A DNA stretch of 64,000 nucleotides from a virus (IMGVR_UViG_3300008952_002784:64001-128000), one strand, 5' to 3'. Shown: positions 360 to 63,915, numbered from the stretch's first letter. Numbers and translations: made by a program. Notes: generated by a model not told the origin, from the sequence alone.

Positions 360-1904
360 ATGTATCTCATACTAACATCTAGCAAAGACACATACATTAC
401 AAATAAAATTATCAACGGCAAGTTTAGAGCAACTGATGCAAATGTCGGCCGCGCTGGAACACTTGATCTTTTCAAATTGTACGATGAGTCAACACTGACA
501 GGCGAAGATTCGCCAACAGAGCTATCCAGGATCCTGATAAAATTTGACATAGATCGCCTTAAGTCACTTACCGGATCGATACTTGACATTAGTAATTCAA
601 CTTTCAAATGTACTCTGAAGTTAAAAAATATACTTGGGGGCCATGCAACACCAAGTAACTATCGAATTGCTGTCTACCCTTTGTCTAAAAGCTTTGATGA
701 GGGTATCGGTCGTGATGTAATATCATTCAATGATATTGATGGGTGCAATTTTATTACAGCATCATACTCAAATGATACCATATCATCGTGGGAATTGACC
801 GGTGCGAACAAGCCAGGACTATTAGGAAGCAGTGATATTGACTACATATCATCAGGAAATCTACACTCAGCCGGAATTGAAGACTTGGGTGCAACACAGC
901 ATTTCGTAGTAGGCGATGAAGATTTGAGCATCGATGTTACAAAAATAATATCAGCAACACTCAAAGATGTAATTCCTGATTTGGGCTTTCGTCTATCGTT
1001 TTCAGGGTCAGAGGAGACAGACTCAAAAACTAGATTTGTAAAGAGATTTGCTTCAAGGCACTCTAGAAATCGCTATAATCAACCACAGTTACATGTATCA
1101 TTTGATGATACACTACACGATCATCATGAATCATTCTTTTTTGACGTAACAGGAACATTGTTTCTAAATAACTTTCATAGAGGACAGCCGTCTAATATAG
1201 TTTCTGGCAGCGGGTTGACACCAGTTGTGGGATCTGATTGTGTGATTGTGCGGCTAATGACAGGATCCTACACAAAATACATCACAGCATCACAGCATAC
1301 AGGAAGCTCTACTAACAAGGGTGCTACGGGTGTTTATTCAGCAACATTTGCACTTCCGTCTAGCACTACAGATATTGTAATTGGAAAAAGTCGTGTAACA
1401 GATTTCGCCAGAATTTCAGGCTCATTGAAATTTGATGAATTTTGGGAAAGCACAGATGGCAAAGTAGGATATTATACTGGTAGTTTGGAAATTAATTCTC
1501 CCAATAGAACAGCTATGAACTTTACATCTAGAAGGCCCATACTGAAAATAATAAATGCTAGAAGTGCTTATACCTCTAGAGACAAAGTAAGATTTAGATT
1601 GTTTGTTAGAGACTACAATGATGAACTAAATACTCCTGTTAAGAGACCGCTCAAGATAAAAAGTGAAGTACTTCAAGAAGTATACTATCGAGTGCGAGAT
1701 GCAGATACAGGCGATATACTGATACCATACGAAAAAAATAAAAATGGTACTAGGCTTTCATCTGATTCTGAGGGAATGTTTTTTGATTTTTACATGTATA
1801 ATCTTTTTCCCGGTAGAGTATATACGTTTGATTTTTTAGTAGTAGATCGTGGTGTTGAGTTTGTAGCAGACAATATTAGCACTAGATTTAGATTGGATGA
1901 ATAA
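360..1904 (+). CDS. Virion structural protein (N-terminal DNRLRE-like beta-sandwich), baseplate region
   Basis: 514-aa ORF with GGGAG RBS. N-terminal SSKDTYIT...SRILIKFDI resembles DNRLRE-type domains; many [S/T]GS motifs. Confidence 0.5.
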   Translation: MYLILTSSKDTYITNKIINGKFRATDANVGRAGTLDLFKLYDESTLTGEDSPTELSRILIKFDIDRLKSLTGSILDISNSTFKCTLKLKNILGGHATPSNYRIAVYPLSKSFDEGIGRDVISFNDIDGCNFITASYSNDTISSWELTGANKPGLLGSSDIDYISSGNLHSAGIEDLGATQHFVVGDEDLSIDVTKIISATLKDVIPDLGFRLSFSGSEETDSKTRFVKRFASRHSRNRYNQPQLHVSFDDTLHDHHESFFFDVTGTLFLNNFHRGQPSNIVSGSGLTPVVGSDCVIVRLMTGSYTKYITASQHTGSSTNKGATGVYSATFALPSSTTDIVIGKSRVTDFARISGSLKFDEFWESTDGKVGYYTGSLEINSPNRTAMNFTSRRPILKIINARSAYTSRDKVRFRLFVRDYNDELNTPVKRPLKIKSEVLQEVYYRVRDADTGDILIPYEKNKNGTRLSSDSEGMFFDFYMYNLFPGRVYTFDFLVVDRGVEFVADNISTRFRLDE

Positions 1905-4900
1905 TGGCGAGTAATAATCCATTCGGCACAGGACCACTTTTCTCTCCGTCAATTGTGAGAAGGCTGGCATCTGAGAATGTTGCATTCAAAGATATGACTA
2001 TCGACAACATGAGCCAGTCACTTCTTTCACCAACAGCATCGTTCATGCATGACCCACCCGGGTCTCCTCTCAAGTCAACCCAGCAAGTGTCTTTAGACTG
2101 GTCTAAATTTGAAAATCACACATTTTTTAATTCAGCAGAAGCAAATGTCAATGTTGCATTTGATACAATTATCAATTACTATCCTTTTGATGGCACTAAG
2201 AGAGAGCTAGATAAATTTCGTAATGACCTTACAGGTTTTGAAAAATATATACTGGATAGATTTCCAAAAAACTTAGGCTATTTGAATTTTTCTGGCACAG
2301 TATCAGGTGAGTCATCTAATGCTGGAACATTTATACGTATCAATGATTATGCTGGGACTACAATGCCGACTCTATCCAGAGATAGAACAGGTAAATCGAT
2401 TCTAGACGCCGGAGTAAATTCACTATCATTTGACTTTCACTTAAGTATACCAAAGAATATTGATCTAGGGCACTCTGTTTTGGTACAGAGGGTCAAGGAT
2501 AAGAAATATGGGTTTACCCTTGTAGTAAGTGAAACAAACGCTGCAGCTGTCTCTGGCGCAATTGAAGTAATAGTATCGTCAGGCAGTCATTTTATGAGTG
2601 CATCAATGGACTTGGCCCGGGGAAGATTCCAGCATATATGCGCAACAATAAACAATACTCCCGGCATTCAAAAGATTGAATTATACAGAAATTTCAAGCT
2701 TAAGTCTACATCATCAATGAGCACAGAAATGGGAGCTTTCGGCTATGCTGATCAACCGATGTTCATAGGATCAGGAACTGCACACGGGCCATATGGAGCT
2801 TCAGAGGGCACAACATGGGTACCAACAACATCGTTCTCCGGATCGATCGATGACTTTCGTATCTTTCATTCTGCTCGAACCCCGAAAATACAAGAAAGAG
2901 AAGCACATCGAAATGTTTACCCTAGCAAGAAGCTTAAGTTATATTTCAAGTTTAATGAACCTACAGGATCTTACTCGAACAACAGTATTCTAATTGACAG
3001 TTCAGGAAATTCACTACACTCAAACATTACAAATTATAGTTCAGCGCTAAGAGAGTTAGACACTTCAGGAATAGAGAATGCCGGACGAACACCCTTAGTA
3101 TTAGAGTCGCTAAGCGAAAATCCTGTTTTATTTCCAGCACATCCAGAACTTATATCACTAAATCAAGATTTGCTAACTTCTGCTTCTAGATATGACTATA
3201 ATAACCCAAATTTAATCACAAAGCTTGTTCCAAAACATTACCTTCACGAGGCATTACAAAATGAAGGTTTCGACTTCCCAGACCCGGAAATAGGCTCAGT
3301 TGGAAATGTCTACGGAGAGTCTAAAAACTTTCCTGGAGGCGGTCAACTAAGCCCACCACATCTAATGGCAACACTTTTGTTTATATGGGCTAAACAATTT
3401 GATGAGTTGAAAATATATCTAGATCATTTTGGCAGAATGTTGCATGTTGATTATGACGACAATGGCACTGTTGCTGATACATTCTTACCTTTTCTAGCTG
3501 AATACTATGGATTTTCATTACCAAACATGACAGCTCATGCATCATTAGGGCAGTACAATAATGGTGAAAATCTAAGACCGGCTTCTGAATTGCATGACAA
3601 CTCACTGAAATATGTCCAGAATCAAATTTGGCGAAGAATCTTGACCGATCTTTCAGAAATCATAAAGTCAAAGGGTACAATTCATAGCATAAAATCGCTA
3701 ATACGTAGGATGGGAATCAATCCGGATCAAAACTTTAGATTTAGAGAATTCGGCGGCTCTAAGTCTAGAAAAATTACAGATGTACGAGAAGCTAGAATAA
3801 CAACAACAAGAATGATATCATTCTCAGGATCGCAAGCAGTTGTTACAGAAGATCTCAACTCTCACGGTATTAGCACTAACAAACCGTTTGCGCAGTCATG
3901 TTTTCTTTCGGGTGCTAGGGTAGAGGTAGGTAAACCAGATCCAGCACCATATTTGCAGTCTATAGGCTATATAACATCCAGTGACTACTCAAAGATAACT
4001 GAGGGTGATAAATTCTTCATCACGTCTTCAGACGGGCAACGCCTTACATTTATATTTGCTGCTAATGCACCTGCAGGTACTAGTGGCTCTATAGAGACTT
4101 GTACTATAAAGATAGCGGGCACAAATAACAATCAAGCACAAGAGATTTATGAAGTTATAACGTCAAGCTTCAGCGGATCTGTTGGCGGAACTTATGATTC
4201 TGATTTAGTAACTGTAATACAATCTAGTAGAGAACGGCTAAACCTGGGTAATAATGCATTTATTTCTGGTACACACAGCCCGGATACAGCTGCTATATCA
4301 TTCCAAGATTTCTCTGGCGGTTCCGGATTCATAAAGCCACACCCGAATAAAGATAAATTTGGAAATCATAGAGATCCTCAAGCTAGTCCAAAAGCACCAA
4401 AGTCTGTACAGCCGTATGGTATACACGGAGTATCTGCAAGAGAGTCAGACGGATTGTTCACTTCAGGATCTTGGACATATGAGGCATACTATGCTTTCCC
4501 AGCAAGAACAGGTTCACTTTCATACAATGTTACACAAAGTTTGTCTAGAGTTTGTACAACAGGATCGGCGGGATCGATAACCGGTTCTGGTGCAATATTG
4601 GCAAACCTTATAGCATTCTCAGGGAGTTCTGATAATTTATCAACAGGCTCACTTACGTTGTACGTAAGGCCTGTGATATCAGGAAGTATGCTAGCACTGC
4701 CTGTTACAGGGGTGAACATATTTGATGGAAACAATTGGCACATTTCATTTGGAAGAATAAGATCAGACCTAACAGGGACTATTAACTCTTCTTCATACTT
4801 TCTTAGAGCTGGCCGCGCATCTAGTGATGGAATAGAAGAGTATCACAGCAAGAGTATTCTCTTTGATGATCATGATGGTACTAACTATTTTGAGTCTTTA

Positions 4901-5908
4901 CACAGCAGTTACAATGCCAGTGGTAGCTTTTTTGTTATCGGATCACAAAGTATTGACGCATATAATCCAAATGCTACAGCCGGTGGCTTTTTAAATGACA
5001 CTAACAAAAATATTCGCCCAAGATGGACGCTATTTGAAGGAAATGTAGGTCAAATAAGATTCTGGTCAAAAGATTTGAACGACACAGAAGACATGGAGCA
5101 TGTACGAAATTTCAAATCATTGGGTGTCTCTAATCCAAAGAAGAATTTTAACTTCGTAACAGTTGAGTCTGGCTCATTTGAAAGACTTCGTGTTGACATA
5201 TCTGCAGATCAAATAAGGACAGGCTCGAATTCCTCAGGATTTATTTCTTTCTTTGATTTCTCTCAAAATAATTTACACCTCTCAGGTACTGGATTTGAAG
5301 CAAATAAACCAGCATGTGTGCCTGTAACATTCCAGCACTCAATGATATCACCATACTTTGATCAAGCAATTAACAATCAAAAAATACGTCCAAGGAGTTT
5401 CAAGAATAGCGAAACGGCACGTAGAAACAAAGTAGAACAAGCACCTTTGCATAAAATACCACCCGGAGAAATTTCTCGAGATGATAAACGTTTTAGTATC
5501 GAAGTATCTTCTGTGCAGGCACTAAATGAAGACATTATCAATATATTCTCAACATTAGATTCACTAGACGAAATAATTGGGTCACCCAACCTTGTATTTT
5601 CTCTTGACTATCCGGACTTAGAAATACTGCGAGACATATATTTTCAGAGGCTGACAACAAAGATCAACAATAGGGCATTTTTTGAGTTTTTCAAGTGGTT
5701 TGATTCAACTATATCTGACATGATTGAAAAACTAGTTCCAAGAAAAACAAGATTTTTGGGAGTCAATTTTGTTATTGAGTCACATATGCTTGAAAGGCCA
5801 AAATTCACTTATAACTATAGCGATATATACTTGGGTGAAAACGATAGACATAGCTTGAAAGGAACACTTTTACTTCGTCAACTAGTAGCAACAATTAGGA
5901 AATATTAA
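1904..5908 (+). CDS. Large baseplate wedge protein (gp7/P2-gpI-like) with LamG/ConA-like domains
   Basis: 1334 aa. FLPFLAEYYGF...IIKSKGTIHSIKSLIRRMG matches the gpI/gp7-type motif. LamG-like segments: FQHICAT...FSGSIDDFRIFH and NWHISFGR...FEGNVGQIRFWS. Confidence 0.6.
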   Translation: MASNNPFGTGPLFSPSIVRRLASENVAFKDMTIDNMSQSLLSPTASFMHDPPGSPLKSTQQVSLDWSKFENHTFFNSAEANVNVAFDTIINYYPFDGTKRELDKFRNDLTGFEKYILDRFPKNLGYLNFSGTVSGESSNAGTFIRINDYAGTTMPTLSRDRTGKSILDAGVNSLSFDFHLSIPKNIDLGHSVLVQRVKDKKYGFTLVVSETNAAAVSGAIEVIVSSGSHFMSASMDLARGRFQHICATINNTPGIQKIELYRNFKLKSTSSMSTEMGAFGYADQPMFIGSGTAHGPYGASEGTTWVPTTSFSGSIDDFRIFHSARTPKIQEREAHRNVYPSKKLKLYFKFNEPTGSYSNNSILIDSSGNSLHSNITNYSSALRELDTSGIENAGRTPLVLESLSENPVLFPAHPELISLNQDLLTSASRYDYNNPNLITKLVPKHYLHEALQNEGFDFPDPEIGSVGNVYGESKNFPGGGQLSPPHLMATLLFIWAKQFDELKIYLDHFGRMLHVDYDDNGTVADTFLPFLAEYYGFSLPNMTAHASLGQYNNGENLRPASELHDNSLKYVQNQIWRRILTDLSEIIKSKGTIHSIKSLIRRMGINPDQNFRFREFGGSKSRKITDVREARITTTRMISFSGSQAVVTEDLNSHGISTNKPFAQSCFLSGARVEVGKPDPAPYLQSIGYITSSDYSKITEGDKFFITSSDGQRLTFIFAANAPAGTSGSIETCTIKIAGTNNNQAQEIYEVITSSFSGSVGGTYDSDLVTVIQSSRERLNLGNNAFISGTHSPDTAAISFQDFSGGSGFIKPHPNKDKFGNHRDPQASPKAPKSVQPYGIHGVSARESDGLFTSGSWTYEAYYAFPARTGSLSYNVTQSLSRVCTTGSAGSITGSGAILANLIAFSGSSDNLSTGSLTLYVRPVISGSMLALPVTGVNIFDGNNWHISFGRIRSDLTGTINSSSYFLRAGRASSDGIEEYHSKSILFDDHDGTNYFESLHSSYNASGSFFVIGSQSIDAYNPNATAGGFLNDTNKNIRPRWTLFEGNVGQIRFWSKDLNDTEDMEHVRNFKSLGVSNPKKNFNFVTVESGSFERLRVDISADQIRTGSNSSGFISFFDFSQNNLHLSGTGFEANKPACVPVTFQHSMISPYFDQAINNQKIRPRSFKNSETARRNKVEQAPLHKIPPGEISRDDKRFSIEVSSVQALNEDIINIFSTLDSLDEIIGSPNLVFSLDYPDLEILRDIYFQRLTTKINNRAFFEFFKWFDSTISDMIEKLVPRKTRFLGVNFVIESHMLERPKFTYNYSDIYLGENDRHSLKGTLLLRQLVATIRKY

Positions 5909-7152
5909 TGCCCACTACATCTAGAGTTAATTCAGGGTCAATTACAAGAGGAAGTGTTTCTTCTGAGAGTGGGTCTATTGATTTCCTTAGAGAGGGTGTT
6001 CATATAAGATCTTGGGATCATCTAATCAGAGCAACGGCTGTAAAAGTAAGGGTCGGCTCAGGTGGAAGAATTAAAGTCATCAACGGCAGAGTTCAAACAG
6101 GATCATTTTATCCGTTCAATGATATGGAGTCACCGTCTACTTTTGGATCAATGGGTTATGTATCTCAATCGTATGTGACTTCTTCTACTGGAATTATAAC
6201 AGAGAAATTTACACGCATTGAAAAAGAAAGGTCATCTGTAAGGATGGATTCACACCAGTCTGCTTCTGGATCTATTGCATCGATACCAAGTCACTTCATG
6301 AAATTTGACGATTATGGGCAGCCGCGAGACTTTCAAGATGGAACGCCGTTTTCTGATCAAACACTTTCTGTAGATCGCCACTCTAAAGGGACGATCAACA
6401 CCTCAGATGAAGTAGACTCTTGGAAGAAGCGTTCAGATAATATTTTTCGCGGAGGTGCTATTGAATTCATATCTAGCAACCCCAATACTATTCTTATCTC
6501 ATCTGAAATGGTTGATGCATCAACTTCTCGTCATAATGAGGGAGCAATTGAAATATTCCCAATCAGAGATGAAGCTTCTAGAACGGGTACCGAATTTCCA
6601 TTCTTTGCAAGAGGTGTTAGGGGATCAGTATTCTGCACTGATGAATCTACATTTGGGAATAGTCAGATAATAACAGATCAGTATGAGCCCTACAATGGTC
6701 ACAGAAAAGAGACTTATTTTTTAGACGGAATAGAGTTGTTTGGCGCAGATCTAATAGCATCTCGGAGTTTTGATGTCTCGGGATCTTGGTCTTTGCACTA
6801 TTCTTATCCATTTAATACCGGTACCCTGCAAACAAACAGCACATCAGATCAATTTGCAACAGCTGGCCCTCTTTCAATGCAGGGATTTGTAACAGATCAG
6901 GTTACAGAAATACGACCGTACATCGACAGCACAGACAAGCTTGAAGCTTTGACAAAGCTAGCCGAAGCATCATATGAAGATTCGAATGGCCGAGAAATGT
7001 CAATTGTAGATGCACTTACATATGTGTCATCAAATCTCAGCCTTAACGATAGTGACCTTGGCGTAAACCATAGATATGCAACTCATGGTTTCGACTATAT
7101 CAACACACCTATAGGGACAGACTCAATCGCATTCGGGGGTCTCAAGAAGTAA
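5908..7152 (+). CDS. Hypothetical virion protein
   Basis: 414-aa ORF, translationally coupled (TAATG) within the baseplate cluster. Confidence 0.5.
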   Translation: MPTTSRVNSGSITRGSVSSESGSIDFLREGVHIRSWDHLIRATAVKVRVGSGGRIKVINGRVQTGSFYPFNDMESPSTFGSMGYVSQSYVTSSTGIITEKFTRIEKERSSVRMDSHQSASGSIASIPSHFMKFDDYGQPRDFQDGTPFSDQTLSVDRHSKGTINTSDEVDSWKKRSDNIFRGGAIEFISSNPNTILISSEMVDASTSRHNEGAIEIFPIRDEASRTGTEFPFFARGVRGSVFCTDESTFGNSQIITDQYEPYNGHRKETYFLDGIELFGADLIASRSFDVSGSWSLHYSYPFNTGTLQTNSTSDQFATAGPLSMQGFVTDQVTEIRPYIDSTDKLEALTKLAEASYEDSNGREMSIVDALTYVSSNLSLNDSDLGVNHRYATHGFDYINTPIGTDSIAFGGLKK

Positions 7153-7154: not shown

Positions 7155-10100
7155 ATGCCCACATTCGGCCCAAAAGATGGTAATAAGTTACCATATGACT
7201 TAAAAACAATGTTCGTTTCTGAGAAGGGCGACTTATATCATTCATCAAACGATTTAGTTGCATGGTTTAGAGTTGTATCTGAGCCAGAAACACGAAATGG
7301 TACTTCTGGGTACGAAATGAATGCTCACTTTTCTGAGATTGCTGCATCTTCTGGTTCGTTTTCTGGGTCTATGAATGTCCCACCAGGATTCTCTTCAACA
7401 GAAGTAAAATATCTGACCGGCGCAGTCACATCAGGAAGAGGAAAATCAAGTTTGGATCTCCCTGCTATGGAGATTCTAAGACCCAGACGCGCTAAAACAG
7501 GTAGCTATTTTAAGATAACAGACTCAGAAGCTTTAAAAAATCTTTCTTTTGATGCCGGCGACGGTGGCGACAACAAAGATCCTGCATTTACATTTACATG
7601 CTGGGTAAAGCCACCAGCTAATACGTCCATAGTGAAGAATTCAGCAATTCATAGAGATGCTGTTAGACAATCCGGTACGATGGGATTAGTGTGGAAAGAT
7701 TATCAGTATAGTATGTGGATTAAGACAGGTACACTTGCCTGCTCGATATATCATATAACAGATGATCAAACAAACCCTGCAGGCATAGATAGAATATCTG
7801 CATTTACAGGGCAGGTAATTGGTGATGACCAGCCAGCTACATCTCATACAGGATCACTAAGGTCCGGCCCAGACATGTCAGCACAAAGAGGTCCATGGTG
7901 GCACGTAGCAGCAACATACGATGGGAGCCAAAGCGCGTCGGGAATGAAGCTATATGTAAATGGAATTCCCACACTAGCAGGAACATCTAGTAGATACACA
8001 GGGCCAACATTCTCAGGTGCTTCAGGAATGGTTCATACTGGGAGTGGGTTTTATATCGGTGCTGCAAGAGATGAAGATGACAGAGAAGTTTTCATTACGG
8101 GATCAATTTCTGATGTAGCTATCTGGAAGACAAACTTAACAGACGAGGGAATTAGAGCAGTTTATCATGCATCACTTAACGGAATGCGAAAAGCAAGATC
8201 TGGATATCTAACAAACCCGCCAAGAGTTAGATTGCATGAATATGATAATAAATACGGGACAGATACATACCACTATCCAGCAGCGAAAAGACTGCTAGGC
8301 GATGTTGACTTCAAGGGTAATAAGAAGTCTTGGTATGATGATACTAGATCAATTTATTTTCAATCACCATTTGCAGAATCTAAGATCTATTTTTGGAAAA
8401 GGCCAGAGCACAAGACAAAAATATCGCTAGAGGATAATCGTACAAACCCGCACAAGGTTCACTTTATATTCGATCACAATACTGGATCTGTGGGTGAAAT
8501 AGTCAACATTACTAGCGGCACTACATCTGGCACAGTATTTGACTTGACAGTAGGCATTCAAGGGAAGTATTCTGCTGAGAAAGTAAGTAAGGCATTTATT
8601 CGTGCAGTAAACGAATGTAAGCAACTTCATATTCGTGCAGAAAGATTCTACGACGACGATGACCCAGGAACAGTTTCACCTGTAAGACTAACTCAGCAGA
8701 ATGTGGGTAGCACCGGTAATACTGTCATCGGTTTGACAGGATCAGTCAATATTCACATAAAGAATGTGCCCTCAGGATCACCAGATTTGAGAACACCGAC
8801 TGGGCTGACAGACATAAAGAGATTCACTGGGGGTAGTGAGAGAAAAGTCGTCTATCCTATGATGTTACAATCATCAAGTATTTATCTAACATCATCAATT
8901 GTTAGCCCAAATCTATTTTCACCCCAGTCTCAAGCATCAGGATCATCTAATATAACACCGTCACAATGGGGCGGCGGAATTGTCGCTCCCGGGGTTGTCA
9001 AAAAAGGAGTATCAGATCACAGTGCCAGACACGGGTCTATAGACATAAACCCAGCACGTCTTTTCGAAAGAACAGGCATAAAATCCCAGACAGTCGAATC
9101 AGATTTAGGGCAATACAAATTACAGGGTTCTGGCACATTTGACCAGACAGAGTTCACCCGCGAAGTACTGACGCCGTTTGATGAGTCAGCACATCCGTTC
9201 TCATTTGACTTTAGACACAATAGGTTAGTTGATCCTAAACATAGCACAGATTTGTCTATGTCTGGCGAATTCTTTGGAACGGGATCAAACCCGTCCATTG
9301 TTGGTTATGGATTTGCTTCAAAATTGGGTTCAAAGCATGTAATTGAAATTGATTTGACGCCCACCACCGGATCAACTCAGTTAAAGTATACTACAGGCTC
9401 CGGTCAAATGACAATGGCATACTTTCAATTCAATGAGCATAACAAGGGCGGCTCACCAGCAAAAGGCGACGGACCAGACTATACATATTATGATGCAGAA
9501 GGGCCATCTAGATCATTTAAGGGAATTGGGTTGCAAAAGCAACTGCTTCTTTCTGCATCTGCATCTGACATTATTGACTCTGGTCAAGACGCTCCTGGAG
9601 GTCCAAGTAGCCCATCGACTGCTGAATTAAATTATTTTGTTGATAATCTATACGCCGGCTTTGGCCAGGGTACTTTGCAAAGATCTCATAATGAAAAGTC
9701 ACACCCGGCCGGCCCACGTGGTAAAGGCGCGGGTGTAATAAAGCGCACATGGGATAACGCATCATGGTCATCTCCAATAACTACATTTGGGTTTCCGTTT
9801 CATCCAAAGTATCATGCCACATCATCAATGACCTACCCACTGTCAGGTGTTATCGACGGTCCTTTCTTATTCGAAAAGGCAGTGTATGTATTTAAAGCAA
9901 GGACAACGGGTTCAAATGTTATCTCTTGGGGTGAGGGAAAGAATCAGGACGAAGACTGGGGAGGCCCAGATTACGGCGGCACTACAACAATTTCTGACTG
10001 GTCTAACTTGAGCTATGATACAACGCTCTCTAGCGCTCAACTCGGCCTTCAGTACCCAGCATATGCAAATCTTCCAGCGTACACATTTTTTATTCTGAAT

Positions 10101-13019
10101 CAGAGAAAAGCCAACGTAGACTCAGGTGTCGAACAGGCAGTGAACAGAGTTACGATGGTTGACAATCTATATACTAATACGGGATCAGCAAGCACTGACA
10201 TTGCTGAGTACCCTATTGCCAGACCGTTTATGATACCTACTGGGGCCATGTCTTCCGGGCACACTAGCATACAGACAGGCTCAAGTGTAACTCAAGGGTA
10301 CCAAATTTCGAAAGATGGCCCTGGGCTTTATGTTGACACAATTAGAGATATTGTTTCATTTTCCAGATTTATGCTAGCACCAGATATTGTCAGTGGGTCA
10401 GACCCAATGGCATACGCAAAAACAATACAGACAAAGAAAGGGGGATTTAAAGTTGACCCAAGAACATATGCAGACACAGTTATATCTGGTGTCAACCCGA
10501 ACAGCGAGTTTGTATTGGCCGCCGGAGGGTCGTCACTAGGGTCACACAATTTAAATTTAGATGGTGAAGTAATATCTTTGGCATTTGAAGCTCGATGTCC
10601 AATTCCAAACAAAAGATCAGGGCTTATGTTTTTGGGAGGACAAGACTGGACAGACGAAGGCCAGGCACAATTTGTTGACTCTCTTCAGACAGGCTATAAT
10701 AATCCTGGGTCTAGTGGTTTGGGAATATCATCGGGAAGAAGAATATTAGGTGGAGAATTTCCGGGACTAAACACGCTTTATAGAAATGACTTTAAATTTG
10801 GCACTGTATCCGAAGGCTTTATTGATAATGCCGAAAAAGATTATAAAGTTGCACCGTATCTTTTGCACCCGTCAGATGAGTTGATATTTGGCTGGCAAGC
10901 CCCCCTTCCTCAATCAATATCAGGGAGTAGTTATTCTCAACCTCAACCAGGCGGCCATGGCAATGCAGGTGACTGGGCTTCTGGTTCAAACTATTGCGGT
11001 TGGACTTTCCCCCCGCCATCAGTTTCAGGATATAATCCAGCACCCGGCGGAGGAGATAGATTACCCTCAATTCAAATACTTCCAGGTGAGGGAAAGCTTT
11101 ATATATTCGGGACGTATATCAAAGAGGGTAGCGAAAAAGTAGAACCAACCAGCACTCCAACGTCACTAAATATTCACGAAGCAATTATTGGTGGGTCAGA
11201 AGTATATGATCAATTTGATACAGAGCCTGCAATGATGCATAGCGGGACAATCTACGATAATATTGTAGAGGGTTCAATGAATGCCAGAGGCTTAGAGCTC
11301 AAACATAAAGACTCTGCTATCGTTCGAAGGGTATACAGCAGACAGTCAGAGTCAACAGCTGGGAGCACAGGATCATTCACAAGAGGTGTTCGGTTAGTAG
11401 ATCTAAATGAAAGATTTTATGACACATATTTGCCCGACTTGGGTGAAATGATGAAGATCAATGGAGATAGCCTTTTGGACGGTGCATCTGTGGGTGTTTC
11501 GAAATCGGGCAAGATGCTGACAATTGATGTGTCATACTCTGAACTAGACGGCGCCGGGGATTCTAATGATGTCTCCGGTGTTATAACAATACCTACACCA
11601 CACAGTGGTACTCACAATGTTTTAGTTTTGTCACAACCCTCATACTTTAGTGCGTCTAATAAGACGTCAGGTGACATTGTCCATGTGCAAAATGAAGGCC
11701 CGGCCGATGCATTTGATACGCAGTGGCCCATGATATTTCCATTTGAGCCAAAATATGCAAATATTGATAGATTATCTTCTCCTATCGACAAGAATAAGAG
11801 CATGGCAGTCATAACAGGATCAGACGGATCTAAAATTAGAGACGGAAAAATCACACATGTGCTATTGACTGGAACGCTTTCCTTTATGAAAAGTATAGGC
11901 GCAGGCCCAATAGACACAGAGTATGTATACGGTCATAGAAACATACGATATGCTTATAAGTTTGCCAACTTAAGTTCAAATAAAGTAGATGGACTTTCCT
12001 CAATGGGATTCCACTCAGCATCAGATGGTGGCGCCTCTTGGACGTCTGTTGACTCATGGGCTCACGGAACTTACGGTTATATGACCAGATCAAATGGCTA
12101 TATTATCCGAACCGGTGCATTTAAACTAAATGGAAGACATTATAAGACAACAGAGTCATCATACGGTTATATTGTTGACAATGCAGATTATTATGCAAAT
12201 TTGCATCCCAATGCTTTTGGCCCAGGCGGAGATCTGCACCCGGATAATACAGACTCTGATAGTGATTCTTCTCATTTTTGGTATAACTGGGATGCAGTTT
12301 TTGGTCAAGGCAGCGCCCCATCACACGGAAATACTTCCCCACGCGGCCTTATGACCGGCACTATAGCAGCAGAGAATAACTCCGGCGCCGGCGGAGTATT
12401 GGCTGACACAGAAGACAATCGAACGTTTGCAAATGGATTGCCTCCATCAAATTTGCCATTATCATCTGCTGTAGATCATATACAGTTTAATAGTCAAGTA
12501 GGATTCAATTTGACTGCACTGTATTTTGGCATCGGCGACGGCGTACACAATACTGTACAATTTGGAAGAACATCGGCTCCCGTAGGTAATGCTTTGAGAA
12601 CGATCAATAACAGTTATTATTTGCTCCACAAAACTCAAAAGTTTTATTTGATGTCTCAGCCTGTACTGCGAGGATTTAGATATGGAGTAAAAAACATAAA
12701 ACCAGAAAAGTCATCAGCAGTATTTAGTAGAACTCATTATGGTCACTTTAGAGATATGCATGAGCAACGTCTGTATAGTCGATTTACAAATGCTGACGGC
12801 TTGCAAGATCCTGTCATTACATCACTATTTGTTGATAGAGGAACGGGAAATGTAACATCGCCAGAAAGTACAAATTGTCAGAATCTAAGTCAACATTCCA
12901 CGTCATCGCTACCTTACTTTGATGGAGAAGCAAGGGATAGAAAATCAATACCTCCTGATATGGATATTTCTTCAACTAGCATAACAATTATAGACACTAC
13001 TGACTTAACCGAATTGTAG
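7155..13019 (+). CDS. Very large virion/baseplate protein with N-terminal LamG domain (possible receptor binding)
   Basis: 1954 aa. LamG motifs FTFTCWVKP...WWHVAATYDGS...MKLYVNG...FYIGA...GSISDVAIWKTNLT; Gly/Ser/Thr-rich. Confidence 0.6.
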   Translation: MPTFGPKDGNKLPYDLKTMFVSEKGDLYHSSNDLVAWFRVVSEPETRNGTSGYEMNAHFSEIAASSGSFSGSMNVPPGFSSTEVKYLTGAVTSGRGKSSLDLPAMEILRPRRAKTGSYFKITDSEALKNLSFDAGDGGDNKDPAFTFTCWVKPPANTSIVKNSAIHRDAVRQSGTMGLVWKDYQYSMWIKTGTLACSIYHITDDQTNPAGIDRISAFTGQVIGDDQPATSHTGSLRSGPDMSAQRGPWWHVAATYDGSQSASGMKLYVNGIPTLAGTSSRYTGPTFSGASGMVHTGSGFYIGAARDEDDREVFITGSISDVAIWKTNLTDEGIRAVYHASLNGMRKARSGYLTNPPRVRLHEYDNKYGTDTYHYPAAKRLLGDVDFKGNKKSWYDDTRSIYFQSPFAESKIYFWKRPEHKTKISLEDNRTNPHKVHFIFDHNTGSVGEIVNITSGTTSGTVFDLTVGIQGKYSAEKVSKAFIRAVNECKQLHIRAERFYDDDDPGTVSPVRLTQQNVGSTGNTVIGLTGSVNIHIKNVPSGSPDLRTPTGLTDIKRFTGGSERKVVYPMMLQSSSIYLTSSIVSPNLFSPQSQASGSSNITPSQWGGGIVAPGVVKKGVSDHSARHGSIDINPARLFERTGIKSQTVESDLGQYKLQGSGTFDQTEFTREVLTPFDESAHPFSFDFRHNRLVDPKHSTDLSMSGEFFGTGSNPSIVGYGFASKLGSKHVIEIDLTPTTGSTQLKYTTGSGQMTMAYFQFNEHNKGGSPAKGDGPDYTYYDAEGPSRSFKGIGLQKQLLLSASASDIIDSGQDAPGGPSSPSTAELNYFVDNLYAGFGQGTLQRSHNEKSHPAGPRGKGAGVIKRTWDNASWSSPITTFGFPFHPKYHATSSMTYPLSGVIDGPFLFEKAVYVFKARTTGSNVISWGEGKNQDEDWGGPDYGGTTTISDWSNLSYDTTLSSAQLGLQYPAYANLPAYTFFILNQRKANVDSGVEQAVNRVTMVDNLYTNTGSASTDIAEYPIARPFMIPTGAMSSGHTSIQTGSSVTQGYQISKDGPGLYVDTIRDIVSFSRFMLAPDIVSGSDPMAYAKTIQTKKGGFKVDPRTYADTVISGVNPNSEFVLAAGGSSLGSHNLNLDGEVISLAFEARCPIPNKRSGLMFLGGQDWTDEGQAQFVDSLQTGYNNPGSSGLGISSGRRILGGEFPGLNTLYRNDFKFGTVSEGFIDNAEKDYKVAPYLLHPSDELIFGWQAPLPQSISGSSYSQPQPGGHGNAGDWASGSNYCGWTFPPPSVSGYNPAPGGGDRLPSIQILPGEGKLYIFGTYIKEGSEKVEPTSTPTSLNIHEAIIGGSEVYDQFDTEPAMMHSGTIYDNIVEGSMNARGLELKHKDSAIVRRVYSRQSESTAGSTGSFTRGVRLVDLNERFYDTYLPDLGEMMKINGDSLLDGASVGVSKSGKMLTIDVSYSELDGAGDSNDVSGVITIPTPHSGTHNVLVLSQPSYFSASNKTSGDIVHVQNEGPADAFDTQWPMIFPFEPKYANIDRLSSPIDKNKSMAVITGSDGSKIRDGKITHVLLTGTLSFMKSIGAGPIDTEYVYGHRNIRYAYKFANLSSNKVDGLSSMGFHSASDGGASWTSVDSWAHGTYGYMTRSNGYIIRTGAFKLNGRHYKTTESSYGYIVDNADYYANLHPNAFGPGGDLHPDNTDSDSDSSHFWYNWDAVFGQGSAPSHGNTSPRGLMTGTIAAENNSGAGGVLADTEDNRTFANGLPPSNLPLSSAVDHIQFNSQVGFNLTALYFGIGDGVHNTVQFGRTSAPVGNALRTINNSYYLLHKTQKFYLMSQPVLRGFRYGVKNIKPEKSSAVFSRTHYGHFRDMHEQRLYSRFTNADGLQDPVITSLFVDRGTGNVTSPESTNCQNLSQHSTSSLPYFDGEARDRKSIPPDMDISSTSITIIDTTDLTEL

Positions 13020-44282: not shown

Positions 44283-44747
44283 ATGCCTTTAGAAAATCCA
44301 AGGCCCGGGCCAAATTACGTACCTGAGTATCAAGTTTCAGGTATACCATACGTGACGAGATCAGTAAGCGATGAAGTTCAAGACTCACCAATAAAATTAG
44401 AATTTCCTCATGTGTCACAGTGGGTAGTAATTAGAAATTTAGCAGCGTCAGGATCTGATATGAGAGTAGGATTCACGTCAAATGGTGTGCAGGGAGGCGG
44501 AGGAATTTCAGGATCCTATGCTGCTGGAAATAAAGAAGGTCCACAGACTAATGCACAAAGCAGAAATTATTTTGTCGTGCCAGGCAACACACAAACTCCT
44601 CGGATGCAGATAAGAACAAAAGACATGTATTTTATACGAGATGGATCAGCTAATTCCACGTTTACTGTTATTGCTGGATTGACAACTGTTCATAGAGAGC
44701 TATTCCCAGTGCTTACAGGTTCTGATGGGTTTGAAGGAGTGGGCTAA
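44283..44747 (+). CDS. Hypothetical virion protein (beta-rich)
   Basis: 154-aa ORF immediately after the protease gene. Confidence 0.6.
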   Translation: MPLENPRPGPNYVPEYQVSGIPYVTRSVSDEVQDSPIKLEFPHVSQWVVIRNLAASGSDMRVGFTSNGVQGGGGISGSYAAGNKEGPQTNAQSRNYFVVPGNTQTPRMQIRTKDMYFIRDGSANSTFTVIAGLTTVHRELFPVLTGSDGFEGVG

Positions 44748-49309: not shown

Positions 49310-51175
49310 ATGAGCAAAAGCTTTTCACTAGATCAACTTACTGAAGGGATTCGCCAGCGCCACCTGGGATCTCAAAATCGTAGGTTGATAGAAAAATGGG
49401 CCCGTACGGGTCTTCTTCGTGGCCTCGAGGGTGTACATCGTGAAAACATGTCACGCATGCTCGAGAATCAGGCAGCGCAAGTCCTTAAGGAAGCTTCCTC
49501 ACTCTCTACGGGTGGAGGTGCACTTGCTACCTCTGGCGACCTACGCGGTTTCACAAACATCGCATTCCCACTTGTACGTCGTGTTTTCGGCGGACTAGTT
49601 GCAAATGAGTTGGTATCAATTCAGCCGATGAGTCTTCCTTCGGGGCTTCTTTTCTATCTGGACTATACGTACGGATCTGAAGAAACGAACATAAGCGACG
49701 TTTCAGACGGTGTATCTATTTACCCATCTGGATCATCTATCTATAACAGCCCAACTGGTAAGGGTGTCCGTTCTGGTTCACTTGCAGTTGGTGGTCAGTA
49801 TGATCTAGCTGGTGTAGGATTCTCTAGAGTTCATGAAAATGTCGCCGGCGTTACACTTAGTGCTTCTGGTGCTATGGGTGGAACATCTAAGCAGATTTAT
49901 TCTGTTGCTAAGGTGATGACAACATCAGGTTCAGATGGAAGACTTCTTCAATTCGATCCTCAAATCACTAGCGATATTGAAGATGGAACAGGACGTTATT
50001 CACTAGCAATTGTTGACTTAACTACTGGATTTGGTAATGCAGATCTTAGTCTGGTCAAAGAGTTTGCTTTGCATCTTAACGGTGGCTCAAGCGCGGGTGT
50101 CAAGAATGTGCGTGCTGGTGTCCAAGATGGTAACAACATTGTAAATGTTAGACGTTTGAATCAGCTGGGTACATTTGCTAGTAGCAAGTTTACTTCTGAT
50201 CCTTTAGTTACGACTGCTACAGCCAATGCAGCAATGCTAATGGTTGTTTCTGGTGTTGTTACAACTACAGACAATGGTAACTTAGATGTGATTATACCAC
50301 AGTCTCCATCTCTTAGCACTGCTGATGATGGATCAACTTTGACTATACCATCATTTGAGTCTAACTTTGGTGCAACTCCGAGTCCGTCTATTCCAGAGAT
50401 TGATATCAAGATTGAGTCTATCGCTGTTACGGCTGCAACTCGTAAGTTACGTGCCAAGTGGTCCCCAGAGCTTGCTCAGGATCTGAATGCTTATCACAGC
50501 CTTGACGCTGAGGTTGAGCTAACCCAGATTCTTTCTGAGCAGATTGCTCTAGAGCTTGATCGGGAAATTCTCAATGACCTTCTTACACAAGCCAACGGTG
50601 CTAACCTTTATTGGTCACGTGCTCCCGGACGCTTTGTACATAAGGAGACAGGTGCTATTCAGTCTAGAGGCTCAACACTTGAACCAGGCCCAGCTTTCAC
50701 TGGTACAGTTCGTGAGTGGTATGAGACGCTAATTGAAACAGTCATTGACGTTGCAAACACGATTCATCGTAAGACCCTTCGTGGTTCTGCAAACTTTATC
50801 GTTGTAAGTCCTGACGTCGCAACTATCTTAGAAGCTTCGGTTTTCTATCGTCCATCTTATAGCCTTGATGGTGATGGTCAGGTAAGTGGTCCGATGACTC
50901 TGGGTGCTGAGAAGGTTGGTACTTTGAGCAACCGTTTCACAGTCTATAAAGATCCTTACTTCCCACGCAACAAGATTCTTGTTGGTTATAAGGGCGGTAG
51001 TTATCTTGAGACTGGTTATGTATATGCTCCTTACGTTCCACTTATTGTTACTCCTACGATATTCGCGCCTGAGGATTTCACTCCTCGCAAAGGTGTAATG
51101 ACTCGTTACGGTAAGAAAATGGTTCGTAGTGACTTCTACGGTACAGTTACAGTTCTGGACTTGAATATCATCTAA
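49310..51175 (+). CDS. Major capsid protein (T4 gp23-like)
   Basis: LENQ, AFPLVRRVFGGLVANELVSIQPMSLPSGLLFYLDY, TRKLRAKWSPELAQDLNAYHSLDAEVELT, GYVYAPYVPL and PRKGVMTRYG; strong AGGAG RBS. Confidence 0.97.
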   Translation: MSKSFSLDQLTEGIRQRHLGSQNRRLIEKWARTGLLRGLEGVHRENMSRMLENQAAQVLKEASSLSTGGGALATSGDLRGFTNIAFPLVRRVFGGLVANELVSIQPMSLPSGLLFYLDYTYGSEETNISDVSDGVSIYPSGSSIYNSPTGKGVRSGSLAVGGQYDLAGVGFSRVHENVAGVTLSASGAMGGTSKQIYSVAKVMTTSGSDGRLLQFDPQITSDIEDGTGRYSLAIVDLTTGFGNADLSLVKEFALHLNGGSSAGVKNVRAGVQDGNNIVNVRRLNQLGTFASSKFTSDPLVTTATANAAMLMVVSGVVTTTDNGNLDVIIPQSPSLSTADDGSTLTIPSFESNFGATPSPSIPEIDIKIESIAVTAATRKLRAKWSPELAQDLNAYHSLDAEVELTQILSEQIALELDREILNDLLTQANGANLYWSRAPGRFVHKETGAIQSRGSTLEPGPAFTGTVREWYETLIETVIDVANTIHRKTLRGSANFIVVSPDVATILEASVFYRPSYSLDGDGQVSGPMTLGAEKVGTLSNRFTVYKDPYFPRNKILVGYKGGSYLETGYVYAPYVPLIVTPTIFAPEDFTPRKGVMTRYGKKMVRSDFYGTVTVLDLNII

Positions 51176-54324: not shown

Positions 54325-55497
54325 ATGAGTACATTTGCCAACACACTAAGCCCGACACCTTTTGGGTTTTTTGATCAAGAGGGGTCATTCCAGACAGAAG
54401 CTGACTCTATGATTACGTTTGTCAAGCGAAAGTTGGGTGATGACATACTCAGTGTCGAGCTTACCAAAAAACAGATTTGGTCGTGCTTCGAAGAGGCATT
54501 CTTAGAGTATGGATCGATAATAAACCAGTATCAGGCAAAGTCACAGTTGGCAAATCTTTTAGGCGCTGCTACAGGTTCTTTATTGTCAGGTAGTGAACAA
54601 AAATATCCCAGAGAAAATCTAGAATTCATGCTACGTCGCGGTGAGCCTTATTCTATGGAAGCTGGTTTGGGTGGGTCATATAACTCGGTATCCGGATCTA
54701 TATCATTGACAAAAGATGTGCAAGATTACGATATATACAGCACGCTTAAAGACTCATCAGGAAATTTGATATTCTCTAGCAGTAAAAACTCGCCAAGGAC
54801 AAAAATGAGAGTAATGGAAGTGATGCATTATTCACCTCAAGCTGCTTATAGATTTTTTGATACGACTAGTGCAGTCAACTATCTCAATAATGAGTTTTCA
54901 TTTGAGTCATTTACCCCAGAAACAGCGTTCTATGTTTTGCCCGTATTTGAAGACGTTCTTAGGGCTGGCATGCTATCAATGTCATCCCGCGTAAGAAGAT
55001 CACACTATAGTTATAAAATTGTAGGAACAAATATTCGAATATTTCCGAAGCCCACGCAGGAAAATCCCAAGAGTCTGTGGATTCGTGTATCATACTCTCC
55101 TGACCCCATGAACCCGGCCTTTCAAGACGATAGTATATACGGTGTAAGTAATCTTTCAAATGTCCCCTACGGTAACCTCATGTTCTCTAGGATAAACTCT
55201 ATAGGGCGCCAGTGGGTTAGGCAATACACACTATCGTTAAGCAAAGAATTGTTGGGTATGGTTCGATCAAAATTCAGCACTGTTCCAATTCCTGGCGGAG
55301 AATTGTCACTAAATGGAAATGATTTGATAACTAGTGCACGATCTGAATTGGAGACATTACAGACACAGCTTCGTGATATGCTTGAGGATCTTACATATTC
55401 TAAAATGCTAGAAGACGAAGCAGCTGCAACAGAAAACTTGCAACGAATTCTTAGAAACATTCCAATTCCTAATGGGAAATCAATAATCATGGGCTAG
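54325..55497 (+). CDS. Neck protein / head-tail adaptor (T4 gp13-like)
   Basis: FVKRKLGDDILSVELTKKQI, QWVRQYTLSLSKELLGMVRSKF and PGGELSLNG are gp13-like. Confidence 0.85.
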   Translation: MSTFANTLSPTPFGFFDQEGSFQTEADSMITFVKRKLGDDILSVELTKKQIWSCFEEAFLEYGSIINQYQAKSQLANLLGAATGSLLSGSEQKYPRENLEFMLRRGEPYSMEAGLGGSYNSVSGSISLTKDVQDYDIYSTLKDSSGNLIFSSSKNSPRTKMRVMEVMHYSPQAAYRFFDTTSAVNYLNNEFSFESFTPETAFYVLPVFEDVLRAGMLSMSSRVRRSHYSYKIVGTNIRIFPKPTQENPKSLWIRVSYSPDPMNPAFQDDSIYGVSNLSNVPYGNLMFSRINSIGRQWVRQYTLSLSKELLGMVRSKFSTVPIPGGELSLNGNDLITSARSELETLQTQLRDMLEDLTYSKMLEDEAAATENLQRILRNIPIPNGKSIIMG

Positions 55498-57599: not shown

Positions 57600-57633
57600 C
57601 ATAGAATGATTCGCGTCTAAGGAGAGATATTCA

Positions 57634-60600: not shown

Positions 60601-60828
60601 CCTGAGACACGTGCGAGGTTTGTCAATCAGGCAGCACCTCTTCTTGCACTAGTCCAAGCTCAAGCGGGAATTGAATCCTTTAGGGTTGTCATGGATGACA
60701 CTAATAACACAGAGGCAGATAGAGAATCAAATAGATTGAACGGAAGAATAATAATTGTTCCTACTAGATCGATTGAGTTTATATCAATCGACTTTGTGGT
60801 CACAAATAGTGGGGTTTCATTCGAGTAA
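57634..60828 (+). CDS. Contractile tail sheath protein 1 (T4 gp18-like)
   Basis: SPGFFEQEIDLS, KGPAFVP, AAAYFPDV, PWFAPAGFNRG, GQKTLQ..SALDRVNVRRLL and PTRSIEFI. Confidence 0.95.
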   Translation: MAEQTFKSPGFFEQEIDLSATRATPLGTPAGVIGTSEKGPAFVPVTVGSYADFESKFGTLDSNRFGPYAVREFLKYKKSATYLRVLGAGANSTTADITTTRNKGTVKNAGFYVGGTATTSMGSAGGHRGVVQFLCAEHSVNFAHEQAGYPVFSDNDSFTGKFGSRSADGTVNLVRAVLFTTTGSRFEVIDGNQRYTDAGGLTGLSDANGGMDDLAGIYDLGLGDPRTATGAGHFKLVLSCSAGTSFANDESASGRRIYTASLDPSDKNYVGKILNTDPWKFQEQQHLLYLDFAVENELASGSLNPGSVALLSGSTSTTSTGGDTSTQFLQLFGRYDTRYTTPQTPEIISQPYGKTEYDLFRFETISDGAWGNDKVKISIANLRASSDPKNKYGTFDVQVRKFDDTDLNTQIVEHYPKCTLDPNDERYIARQIGDKKVYYNFDADEPDERRLVIHGKYPNRSNRIRVVMNSKLEAGEVPQEALPFGFRGVPVLKTSDTLTDLGHLALKNEHNISIGETHSASNTRLSCSGSTNLTGSIVPPLPFRFKVTRGDVSQTHSGYVGQTGTNERVDSKLYWGVKFERMPVSSSSPSGDFSNSCLNSNVAALPNPLIKAYSKFGGIAKLDTVVTGGAADNFNNNKFTLARVALYNQLQSGHITHVSGTAKEHMLEAAYIRNGRPDPNTYTVDDPNNFSRVTLATLVHSSSTVFNRFTDYLKFSTMFYGGFDGLNILDKDSHLMRDRAASMDTGGKATTATPNIGLFTHVAGSGRNNNVVSSYKRAAQILTDPLASRINVLAIPGIRDSFVTDHVLSYVKDYGMAIYLMEMLNYDVDATRLYDDSKTKVNVQETVEQFDSRSIDNNYAAAYFPDVRINDPVNNRHVKVPASVVALGALAYNDKVSFPWFAPAGFNRGALDNVKNVSVRLNAADRDDLYDGRINPIAVFPNGGHVIFGQKTLQQAKSALDRVNVRRLLLEVKRLIVNVARGLLFEQNTPETRARFVNQAAPLLALVQAQAGIESFRVVMDDTNNTEADRESNRLNGRIIIVPTRSIEFISIDFVVTNSGVSFE

Positions 60829-60831
60829 TGA

Positions 60832-60839
60832 ATACCTAT
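60832..60839 (+). promoter_or_regulatory. Putative late promoter motif (ATACCTAT) upstream of sheath 2
   Basis: Variant of the recurrent motif in the intergenic gap. Confidence 0.45.
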
Positions 60840-60876
60840 AATATGAAATTAAGATCTACAGTTAGGAGCGAACAGA

Positions 60877-63800: not shown

Positions 63801-63915
63801 ACAGTCAGATGTTGAAAATAACACAGTTCGAGGGAAGATCTTCCTTCAGCCCACAAGATCAGTTGAGTTTATCGCCCTCGACTTTGTCGTTACAAATCAA
63901 GGTGCAGACGTATAA
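60877..63915 (+). CDS. Contractile tail sheath protein 2 (T4 gp18-like)
   Basis: SPGISTREIDLS, PWFAPAGFSRG, GQKTL..SSLDRVNVRRLL and PTRSVEFIALDF. Confidence 0.95.
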   Translation: MAELTFKSPGISTREIDLSGPTTISPQGTPAGIIGTSLKGHAFVPITVATYQDFVAEFGGTDGEKFGPLAMREWMRSARAGTYVRVLGVGDGKKRSTSGDNTGRVNNAGFTVGQRLVQANGNVSDNTYAGSTNANGGALGRSYFLGCYLSDSNGSTVLKGAGITGKSILGASGSHPMVRGVLFAPSGVLLALSSTAVGVGTNDPVTNLAAYSTFGASANAGSAIGSVNLSNSNQNFVMLLNGHSATDEYPSIYSASFDPDAAQYFHKVFNTDPAKIEKAGHYLYAHWNSYQSHTTLTGSGITAGIAPTGSLHEAAFLLSGTQGRNAGTTSVPNFEGFEERYQAAFSPWIVSQKFGGQRKNLFKFHALDDGARGNDLYKITVENVAGSSNENNKYGTFDILVRDFRDSDAEPRVFESFRALSLDPTSDRYIARIIGDMNMYYDFDQKAGAQKLRIEGTHPNKSSYVRVQVSDDVDDVNIDAASLPVGFRGHHHLVTSGSGILEGYHVAAHHTTQDKLNRAVQMPVPFRDHLRLGVQPRARINAGFTWGVQFEVKDSLDEPNKNQKLDEGIRSYTKYFPMMHTEWQNAMVGDNAGAADSSGVILDSDRFNNGLFTLENIQVVTNSSDLPDPLRWGASSYRRDAIASGSLQDTDGSVYTNTRFFDPDKDFTHLPTRKYLKFSLFMQGGFDGFNMFDKEKTKMSDTAVRREMTDTSGQGGKEGPSIASYRKAIDVMEEKSDVDIQLLAIPGQRHEAVTDYAIDSVESRFDALLIMDVEEKDNVNAFITGSSQIPNVSNTVTRFEARNLDSSFAAAYYPDVVMVDPATNTNVVCPPSVAVLGAFSRNDAVAHPWFAPAGFSRGALNVIESQVKLNRSNLDALYEADINPLTSFPHSQGVIVFGQKTLLAAQSSLDRVNVRRLLIDVRRKVRKVANTILFEPNRASTLARFSAAVTPILTRIQQQQGLDRFKVQIDTSTTTQSDVENNTVRGKIFLQPTRSVEFIALDFVVTNQGADV

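Follow-up and report, generated by a model that had tools for sequence, protein, structure and literature searches.

The window analysed here comprises 64,000 nucleotides (bases 64,001–128,000) of one 136,953-bp contig (IMGVR_UViG_3300008952_002784) of an uncultured, T4-like aquatic phage, with positions counted from the first letter of the window. It encodes T4-type structural proteins, and in a subset of these the tripeptide [S/T]-G-S (written [ST]GS where it is counted) occurs about five times as often as expected. This tripeptide, its possible role as an O-glycosylation acceptor tag and the glycosyltransferase (GT) genes upstream of the window are the subject of this report. The large genes of the window all lie on the + strand. 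Pfam searches identified a gp23-family capsid protein, a gp20-type portal, a gp21-type protease, a T4-type large terminase and two tail-sheath paralogues, weak matches for the neck protein and gp15, and further matches for a primase, RuvC and an SbcCD-like fusion. Most baseplate-region proteins, and most virion proteins, lacked a PHROG match, and the 1334-amino-acid (aa) protein had no tblastn match among 50,697 phage records. Because related contigs of 318–322 kb were rated 93% complete and those of 125–133 kb were rated 28–42% complete, the contig probably represents part of a larger genome.

Counts are reported as observed vs expected. Briefly, expected counts of [ST]GS were obtained from per-protein shuffles, and shuffles within blocks of 20 and 40 residues and a first-order Markov model served as additional nulls. 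When all tripeptides of the window were ranked without preselecting the motif, TGS came first (43 vs 12.2, z 9.3) and SGS second (48 vs 17.9, z 7.0), giving 91 occurrences together where about 30 were expected; the same two tripeptides also headed the ranking across the whole 137-kb contig. The excess resided in 11 motif-bearing proteins, among them outer baseplate proteins, both sheaths, the neck protein and the capsid insertion, which held 88 [ST]GS vs 18.5 expected (4.8-fold; Table 1). An earlier note on this DNA, made from the sequence alone, had counted the motif by hand in the 514-aa and 1334-aa proteins and had guessed an expectation of about 3 for the latter; its counts were exact on recount, and the guess lay close to the shuffled value of 2.3. 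Its statements that many more occur in the 1954-aa and 821-aa proteins and that both sheaths carry the motif agreed with our counts, and the contexts it quoted from the neck protein (ATGSLLSGSE, VSGSI) and the capsid insertion (PSGS, RSGS, TSGS) were all found in the sequence.

The excess was specific in both sequence and order. Permutations of the same residues reached at most 1.9-fold. Before G-S, only S and T were enriched at the first position, and only G at the second; after [ST]-G, Ser was strongly and Thr weakly enriched, with S far above T, N and D. The turn-forming variants [ST]G[ND] and [ND]GS were not enriched in this phage. Among the related forms that the earlier note had listed as recurring, SGT was enriched (38 vs 20.8), but TAS (16 vs 16.9), SAS (33 vs 24.7) and SSS (54 vs 42.3) were not. 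The excess persisted under block shuffles (88 vs about 22) and under the Markov null (SGS 46 vs 25.1, TGS 42 vs 18.2). Codons within the motif followed normal usage, and the excess therefore resides in the protein and not in the DNA. The DNA words GGATC and CAGGATC had seemed frequent, but their counts were frame-specific. Two other candidate explanations were rejected. One was replacement of deamidation-prone N-G by G-S turns. The dipeptide Asn-Gly was under-represented across the contig (105 vs 158.9, z -4.4), but NG was mildly depleted in all protein classes here and in T4, so its depletion is unlinked to the motif. Co-regulation of the motif-bearing genes by late promoters was likewise not indicated, as the T4 late promoter TATAAATA occurred only twice on the coding strand and no common intergenic k-mer was found.

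Table 1. Features of the window and of the contig upstream of it (window positions unless marked "contig"; [ST]GS counts are observed vs expected, and counts in relatives are summed over non-independent sequences).
Feature	Position	Strand	[ST]GS here	[ST]GS in relatives	Remarks
514-aa multi-domain beta-sandwich protein, baseplate module	360..1904	+	7 vs 0.8	373 vs 62.3 (69 relatives)	residues 71, 215, 282, 301, 314, 353, 373
1334-aa protein	1904..5908	+	16 vs 2.3	731 vs 135.6 (70 relatives)	Laminin_G_3 (ConA-like) domain
414-aa protein	5908..7152	+	5 vs 1.2 (p=0.007)	95 vs 24.7	
1954-aa protein	7155..13019	+	21 vs 4.6	338 vs 94.6	Laminin_G_3 domain
821-aa protein	27680..30145	+	8 vs 1.5		weak Laminin_G_3 match
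154-aa protein	44283..44747	+	3 vs 0.28	12 vs 2.9	adjoins prohead protease gene
Major capsid protein, gp23 family	49310..51175	+	3 vs 1.1 (p=0.10, not significant alone)	104 vs 37.4	residues 140, 155, 206
Neck protein, 390 aa, gp13/Ad2-like	54325..55497	+	3 vs 0.6	192 vs 27.9	residues 83, 88, 123
Tail sheath paralogue 1, 1064 aa	57634..60828	+	5 vs 1.2	182 vs 52.5	all sites within inserted domains
Tail sheath paralogue 2, 1012 aa	60877..63915	+	6 vs 1.3	135 vs 40.6	
Two large Ser-rich proteins, 1199 and 1424 aa	15775..23648	+	0 vs 3.5 and 1 vs 3.1	1 vs 20.8 (1199-aa family, 20 relatives)	no family match
gp6-like protein				10 vs 36.6	
gp25-like protein				0 vs 6.7	
Tail tube protein				0 vs 1.2	
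158-aa head-region protein				0 vs 8.8	
Glycan cluster	contig 29,888-58,452				~28 kb, 31 proteins
Methyltransferase-sulfotransferase fusion, 655 aa	contig 35,638-37,605				inside glycan cluster
GT-B, GT4 enzyme, 389 aa	contig 57,283-58,452				closes cluster; ~5.5 kb upstream of window
PrkA (AAA and C-terminal domains), DUF444 (YeaH), SpoVR	contig 10,796-15,301				three adjacent genes
gp20-type portal gene, 1884 aa	37179-42833				interrupted by intein and HNH modules (Pfam: three Intein_splicing, two HNH_3 stretches)
471-aa open reading frame (ORF)	51280-52695				between capsid and neck genes; weak endonuclease-type matches (MTES_1575, NUMOD3, Vsr)
403-aa protein	contig 19,243-20,454				weak Tubulin/FtsZ GTPase match (E 3.6e-7, under Pfam cut-off)

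The motif proved to be neither virion-wide nor, as the earlier note had put it, strongly enriched in virion proteins only, in the sense of marking virion proteins as a class. Twelve other virion proteins (the 1199-aa, 1424-aa, gp6-like, gp25-like, portal, tail tube and other proteins) held 2 [ST]GS vs 12.1, and 48 non-virion proteins held 13 vs 10.5. The excess is absent from the tail tube, protease, gp25-like and gp6-like proteins. Replication enzymes did not share the excess, and the low numbers that had been reported for the SbcCD-like fusion, primase and terminase were borne out (0, 1 and 1, respectively). The depletion in the other virion proteins may be the baseline for such proteins, as T4 virion proteins are similarly low (1 vs 7.0). 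The motif-bearing proteins do not share a domain: blastp among 12 motif-bearing proteins matched only the two sheaths, tandem paralogues (57634–63915) of more than 1000 aa each that are 34% identical over their full length.

The same excess was observed in about 70 related marine contigs, retrieved in two scans of viral contigs, one centred on the 1334-aa gene (75 loci) and the other on the neck gene (80 loci). Counts by family in the relatives are given in Table 1; among 150 database representatives of the 514-aa family the count was 700 vs 125.9. These counts are not independent, since the excess is concentrated in a few conserved alignment columns, and the independent units are better taken as about 37 conserved sites in six families, vs roughly 7 expected. 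Among the relatives, the third-place Ser was encoded by both the TCN and the AGY codon family at 25 of the 37 conserved sites, showing that Ser itself is selected. The 403-aa protein with a Tubulin/FtsZ-like match has homologues in 15 relatives that also showed some excess (18 vs 6.5). Judging by its matches, the 471-aa ORF that separates the capsid and neck genes probably encodes a homing endonuclease; its homologues are scattered in the 484-kb phage LR756508.1.

Within the proteins, the motif appears confined to parts that are predicted to face outwards, namely the capsid and sheath insertions. In the capsid family 85 of 89 sites fell within residues 100–350, the insertion, and none within 450–621, while the Pfam gp23 core aligns to residues 355–611; the three sites of the capsid protein in the window all lie in the insertion outside that core. 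In the sheath 1 family none of 156 sites lay in the conserved C-terminal core (750–1064) or in residues 1–100. The 514-aa protein was modelled with AlphaFold2 (AF2) at a predicted local distance difference test (pLDDT) score of 94.7, as a series of beta-sandwich domains whose fold neighbours are carbohydrate-binding-module and Ig-like sandwiches. In this model its seven sites, six of them conserved, span five structural settings. Sites 71 and 353 follow a helix, site 215 (S-G-S-E-E) forms a helix N-cap, sites 282 and 314 are at strand ends, site 301 is in a two-residue G-S hairpin (301–303, the only such hairpin) and site 373 is mid-strand. As regards exposure, the motif thus occupies inserted domains that are predicted to face outwards and, in the model, mostly the ends of helices and strands.

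The earlier note had proposed looking for glycosyltransferases elsewhere in the genome, and the glycan cluster directly upstream of the window contains 10 of them (families GT2, GT4/GT1 and GT11). The cluster lies on the same strand as the virion genes that flank it on both sides. Its sugar-nucleotide enzymes comprise a GDP-mannose 4,6-dehydratase, several epimerases or reductases, a nucleotidyl transferase, a UDP-glucose/GDP-mannose dehydrogenase and two DegT-type aminotransferases, and its decorating enzymes comprise a formyl transferase, a radical-SAM enzyme, methyltransferases and the methyltransferase-sulfotransferase fusion, which suggests a sulfated, methylated product. Among the 31 cluster proteins no clear membrane segment was found (one was marginal), and none of the families of flippases, polymerases, lipid-carrier transferases or oligosaccharyltransferases was detected. 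These features point to a soluble acceptor and not to a host surface polysaccharide.

The last two genes of the cluster encode the GT4 enzymes GT-A (415 aa) and GT-B. In relatives with at least 9 kb of upstream DNA, these genes adjoined the baseplate genes in 34 of 40 (GT-A) and 38 of 40 (GT-B) cases. The EX7E glutamates were invariant in both enzymes, including E276 and E284 of GT-B in 32 sequences; an active/inactive pair of the GtfA/GtfB kind is not indicated, as both keep the catalytic EX7E. Public data contain more than 5,600 GT-A clusters at 90% identity, and GT-A matches the chlorovirus 3oy2-type protein at the sequence level (E 5e-5). Among the GT-B look-alike clusters listed in the ESM Atlas, 99–100% were viral. 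The AF2 model of GT-B (pLDDT 93.2) had as its best fold match a chlorovirus putative glycosyltransferase (PDB 3oy2; E 1.3e-16, template modelling (TM) score 0.65).

The presence of GT-B, and not that of GT-A, followed the motif excess across all seven phage groups compared, four with the excess and three without. The window phage and its marine relatives have the excess, GT-B and GT-A. Flavobacterium phage immuto has both enzymes and an excess of 60 vs 12.5 in eight tail and baseplate proteins, with SGS ranked first and TGS fourth among its tripeptides. Microcystis phage Mel-JY01 has GT-B and three motif-rich proteins (11 vs 1.56, 9 vs 0.67 and 5 vs 0.63); its GT-A orthologue is found in three pieces, spread over ORFs of 198 and 313 aa (PP395634.1, 83,441–84,908), the gene being split or frameshifted or the record containing a sequencing error. 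In Rhodothermus phage RM378 a GT-B-like gene adjoining a GT-A-like gene was found first, by the same GT-B profile search that detected the homologues in immuto and Mel-JY01, and the motif was counted afterwards as a prediction; it was in excess genome-wide (51 vs 19.0), with SGS ranked fifth and TGS tenth. The profile search found no GT-B homologue in LR756508.1, T4 or P-HM1. T4 (1 vs 7.0) and P-HM1 (8 vs 7.5) have neither GT-A nor the excess. An excess of [ST]GS is thus not general to myovirus virion proteins, which speaks against a generic beta-turn, one of the explanations that the earlier note had named as refuting its proposal.

LR756508.1 has GT-A, and it is informative because homologous double sheaths, neck, gp6-like and 1400-aa proteins are present. 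Its two sheaths and its neck protein contained no [ST]GS, and its 1400-aa homologue contained 2 vs 0.81; the comparison rests on the baseplate and sheath regions, as the head region has no informative proteins. Of the 14 columns at which the 1334-aa family conserves the motif, alignment being uncertain at such distances, LR756508.1 had the motif at none, Mel-JY01 at four and immuto at three. LR756508.1 has SST, SPS, SSA and similar residues at these columns, so the fold tolerates other residues there.

Taken together, these results give an even chance, in our judgement, that [S/T]-G-S is a short O-glycosylation acceptor tag on outward-facing virion domains, used by soluble phage enzymes. Such a tag would read [S/T]-G-S with Ser strongly preferred at the third place and usually a hydrophobic residue next. 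Soluble glycosyltransferases encoded by the phage would modify virion proteins in the host cytoplasm, during or after folding; GT-B, a phage-specific GT4 enzyme, would recognise or prime the tag, and the rest of the cluster, with its nine further glycosyltransferases, would supply activated sugars and extend or decorate the glycan. Among the cluster enzymes, the one that co-occurs with the motif across the seven groups, GT-B, is the leading candidate for reading or priming the tag. The statistics of the motif, its restriction to certain proteins and domains, its conservation and its co-occurrence with GT-B are observed, as are the cluster enzymes and their solubility. That a sugar is attached, which residue would carry it and which enzyme would read the tag are what we infer from these patterns. 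In a wider and more tentative picture, which we rate as falling somewhat short of an even chance, a widespread group of aquatic T4-like phages, cultured examples of which infect Flavobacterium, Microcystis and Rhodothermus, would coat their particles with a self-made, possibly sulfated and methylated glycan that GT-B attaches at [S/T]-G-S on folded surface domains. The proposal of a common O-glycosylation site in the earlier note thus survives in part: shuffles, glycosyltransferase genes and the co-occurrence of GT-B agree with it, but not all virion proteins carry the motif, and its concentration at a small number of conserved, ordered positions fits a structural role too.

Several observations weigh against a glycosylation tag. 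The proposal is built on sequences and models, and any modification is putative. Family searches with GT-B gave generic GT4 matches far under curated cut-offs (18.8 bits against the NCBIfam GtfA model, cut-off 574.6). Its fold neighbours include SdgB (from rank 6) and GtfA (rank 50) but also the small-molecule enzymes BshA, GlgM and sucrose-phosphate synthase; as protein and small-molecule transferases are mixed, the fold leaves the acceptor unspecified. Since the contig is probably a fragment, a DNA-glycosylation pathway is possible as the client of the cluster. The Ser-rich 1199-aa and 1424-aa proteins, which we take as virion proteins from their position in the tail-fibre region, lack the motif, and the motif-rich ORFs of RM378 are mostly unannotated (8 of 9 tested had no PHROG match). 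The link between GT-B and the motif may also rest on a single evolutionary event. In the capsid tree LR756508.1 was nested with RM378, immuto and Mel-JY01 (93/89), implying two events; in the gp6-like tree it fell outside the motif-bearing phages (82/79), and a single origin was not rejected by the approximately unbiased (AU) test (p 0.32).

The last of these points also favours the strongest alternative, that [S/T]-G-S is a structural motif of tight turns, strand ends and helix caps (an ST-turn or capping box, a G-S hairpin) in clade-specific beta-sandwich surface domains inherited from an ancestor, with the glycosyltransferase cluster serving DNA, small molecules or host glycans. Most of the excess lies at conserved columns (237 of 343 occurrences at 7 columns in the 514-aa family and 453 of 669 at 14 columns in the 1334-aa family), and low-occupancy columns are at or below chance (observed/expected 0.5–0.9), so that ongoing gain of sites was rejected; an excess in few columns would fit inherited structural positions as well as inherited modification sites. 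Retention of the window sites in aligned relatives (34.8%) was not clearly above that of control tripeptides ([ST]AS 39.2%, [ST]G[not STG] 31.2%, [not STG]GS 26.5%). Hydrophobic residues are over-represented at positions -2, -1 and +1 around the motif, and the seven modelled sites of the 514-aa protein are all well ordered (block pLDDT mostly above 90), one of them inside a strand; G-S as a two-residue hairpin turn at 301–303 and S-x-x-E as a helix cap at 215 are plausible. Immuto showed an excess of [ND]GS too (15 vs 6.5), which would be expected were a capping side chain the important feature. On the other side, a structural motif would have to be squared with its lack of excess in the homologous or analogous virion proteins of T4, P-HM1 and LR756508.1, with the other residues that LR756508.1 has at all 14 aligned sites of the 1334-aa family, and with the five different settings of the modelled sites. 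In the window phage itself, the equivalent turn formers [ST]G[ND] and [ND]GS are not enriched and third-place Thr is enriched only weakly. The motif-bearing proteins, the sheath pair excepted, have no detectable homology, and a structural role gives no reason for the link with GT-B. We regard this explanation as the main rival, less likely than a tag.

Another covalent modification or interaction of surface serines, such as PrkA-type phosphorylation, another group transfer or docking of an assembly factor, would suit the selection for third-place Ser at the amino-acid level, and the contig does encode a PrkA, DUF444 and SpoVR triad (Pfam E 1e-114 to 1e-132). However, the glycan cluster is far larger, lies among virion genes and contains an enzyme that tracks the motif, and PrkA-family proteins are not known to act as kinases on such sites. 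We consider this alternative improbable. An artefact of composition, of low-complexity Ser/Gly linkers or of a DNA word can be dismissed almost entirely: the motif-rich proteins do contain much S, T and G, and SG, TG and GS show some enrichment as dipeptides, but the per-protein, local-block and Markov nulls all leave the excess, permuting the residue order gives no comparable enrichment, codon usage is ordinary with both families of Ser codons present, and the equally Ser-rich 1199-aa protein (16% Ser) has no [ST]GS at all.

If glycosylation at [S/T]-G-S is confirmed, phage virion glycosylation would gain its first short sequon, and cytoplasmic O-glycosylation a minimal tag; in the literature searched, no report of a phage virion sequon was found. 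A very abundant group of aquatic phages, going by the number of GT-A clusters, would then bear a sugar coat at defined sites. Such a coat would have consequences for how stable the particles are, how they adhere to marine particles and mucus, how they are grazed and decay, and possibly for host recognition, and a soluble enzyme with a three-residue tag would be useful in glycoengineering. The proposal is directly testable because three cultured phages (immuto, Mel-JY01 and RM378) have the same signature.

Among the closest known systems are mycobacteriophages, in which phage glycosyltransferases glycosylate the virion, with glycans at the C-termini of capsid and tail-tube subunits (Freeman et al. 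2023, as summarised in PMC12619734). As there, a tailed phage has its own glycosyltransferase genes that are thought to decorate virion proteins in the host cytoplasm. Unlike those C-terminal sites, for which the summary mentions no short tag, the candidate sites here are a tripeptide located in surface insertions or domains of the capsid, sheath, neck and baseplate proteins: the capsid motif lies at residues 100–350 of 621, and the tail-tube family lacks the motif. The phages themselves also differ, being T4-like aquatic myoviruses with a ~28-kb glycan cluster. Closer in habitat are the "moraphages", large aquatic phages predicted to infect Bacteroidota, which likewise have T4-type structural genes (gp6, gp13, gp19, gp25, sheath and portal) and four core orthologous groups of putative glycosyltransferases, with virion glycosylation mentioned as one possible role (PMC12619734); the word "sequon" is absent from that paper, and the parts covered here describe no motif analysis. 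A review of bacterial O-glycosylation from 2025, to the extent covered, gives sequons for O-oligosaccharyltransferases and none known for flagellin Maf enzymes, and phages go unmentioned.

At the enzyme level, GT-B can be compared with SdgB, which acts on Ser-Asp repeats, and GtfA, which acts on serine-rich repeat adhesins. These soluble GT4 protein O-GlcNAc transferases of Gram-positive bacteria are, like GT-B, cytoplasmic enzymes of the GT-B fold with an EX7E motif, and they glycosylate serines in a short context. They are about 500 residues long, of which 330–350 columns aligned (TM score by target 0.39–0.43), and GT-B, with 389 residues, is without their extra domain; their substrates are long disordered repeats, whereas the candidate tag consists of isolated tripeptides in folded domains. 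The small-molecule GT4 enzymes BshA, GlgM and sucrose-phosphate synthase match GT-B as well as or better than SdgB and GtfA do. Chloroviruses use enzymes of their own to glycosylate the capsid protein at non-canonical sites, and the known chlorovirus glycans are N-linked, a difference from the O-linkage proposed here. The chlorovirus NY-2A B736L-type protein is, like GT-B, a virus-encoded soluble enzyme (15% sequence identity), and its entry, 3oy2, is titled "putative glycosyltransferase" with the acceptor not given. With sequon-directed glycosylation in general, the window phage shares a short ordered motif that is over-represented in a set of candidate substrates (88 vs 18.5) and not elsewhere (13 vs 10.5).

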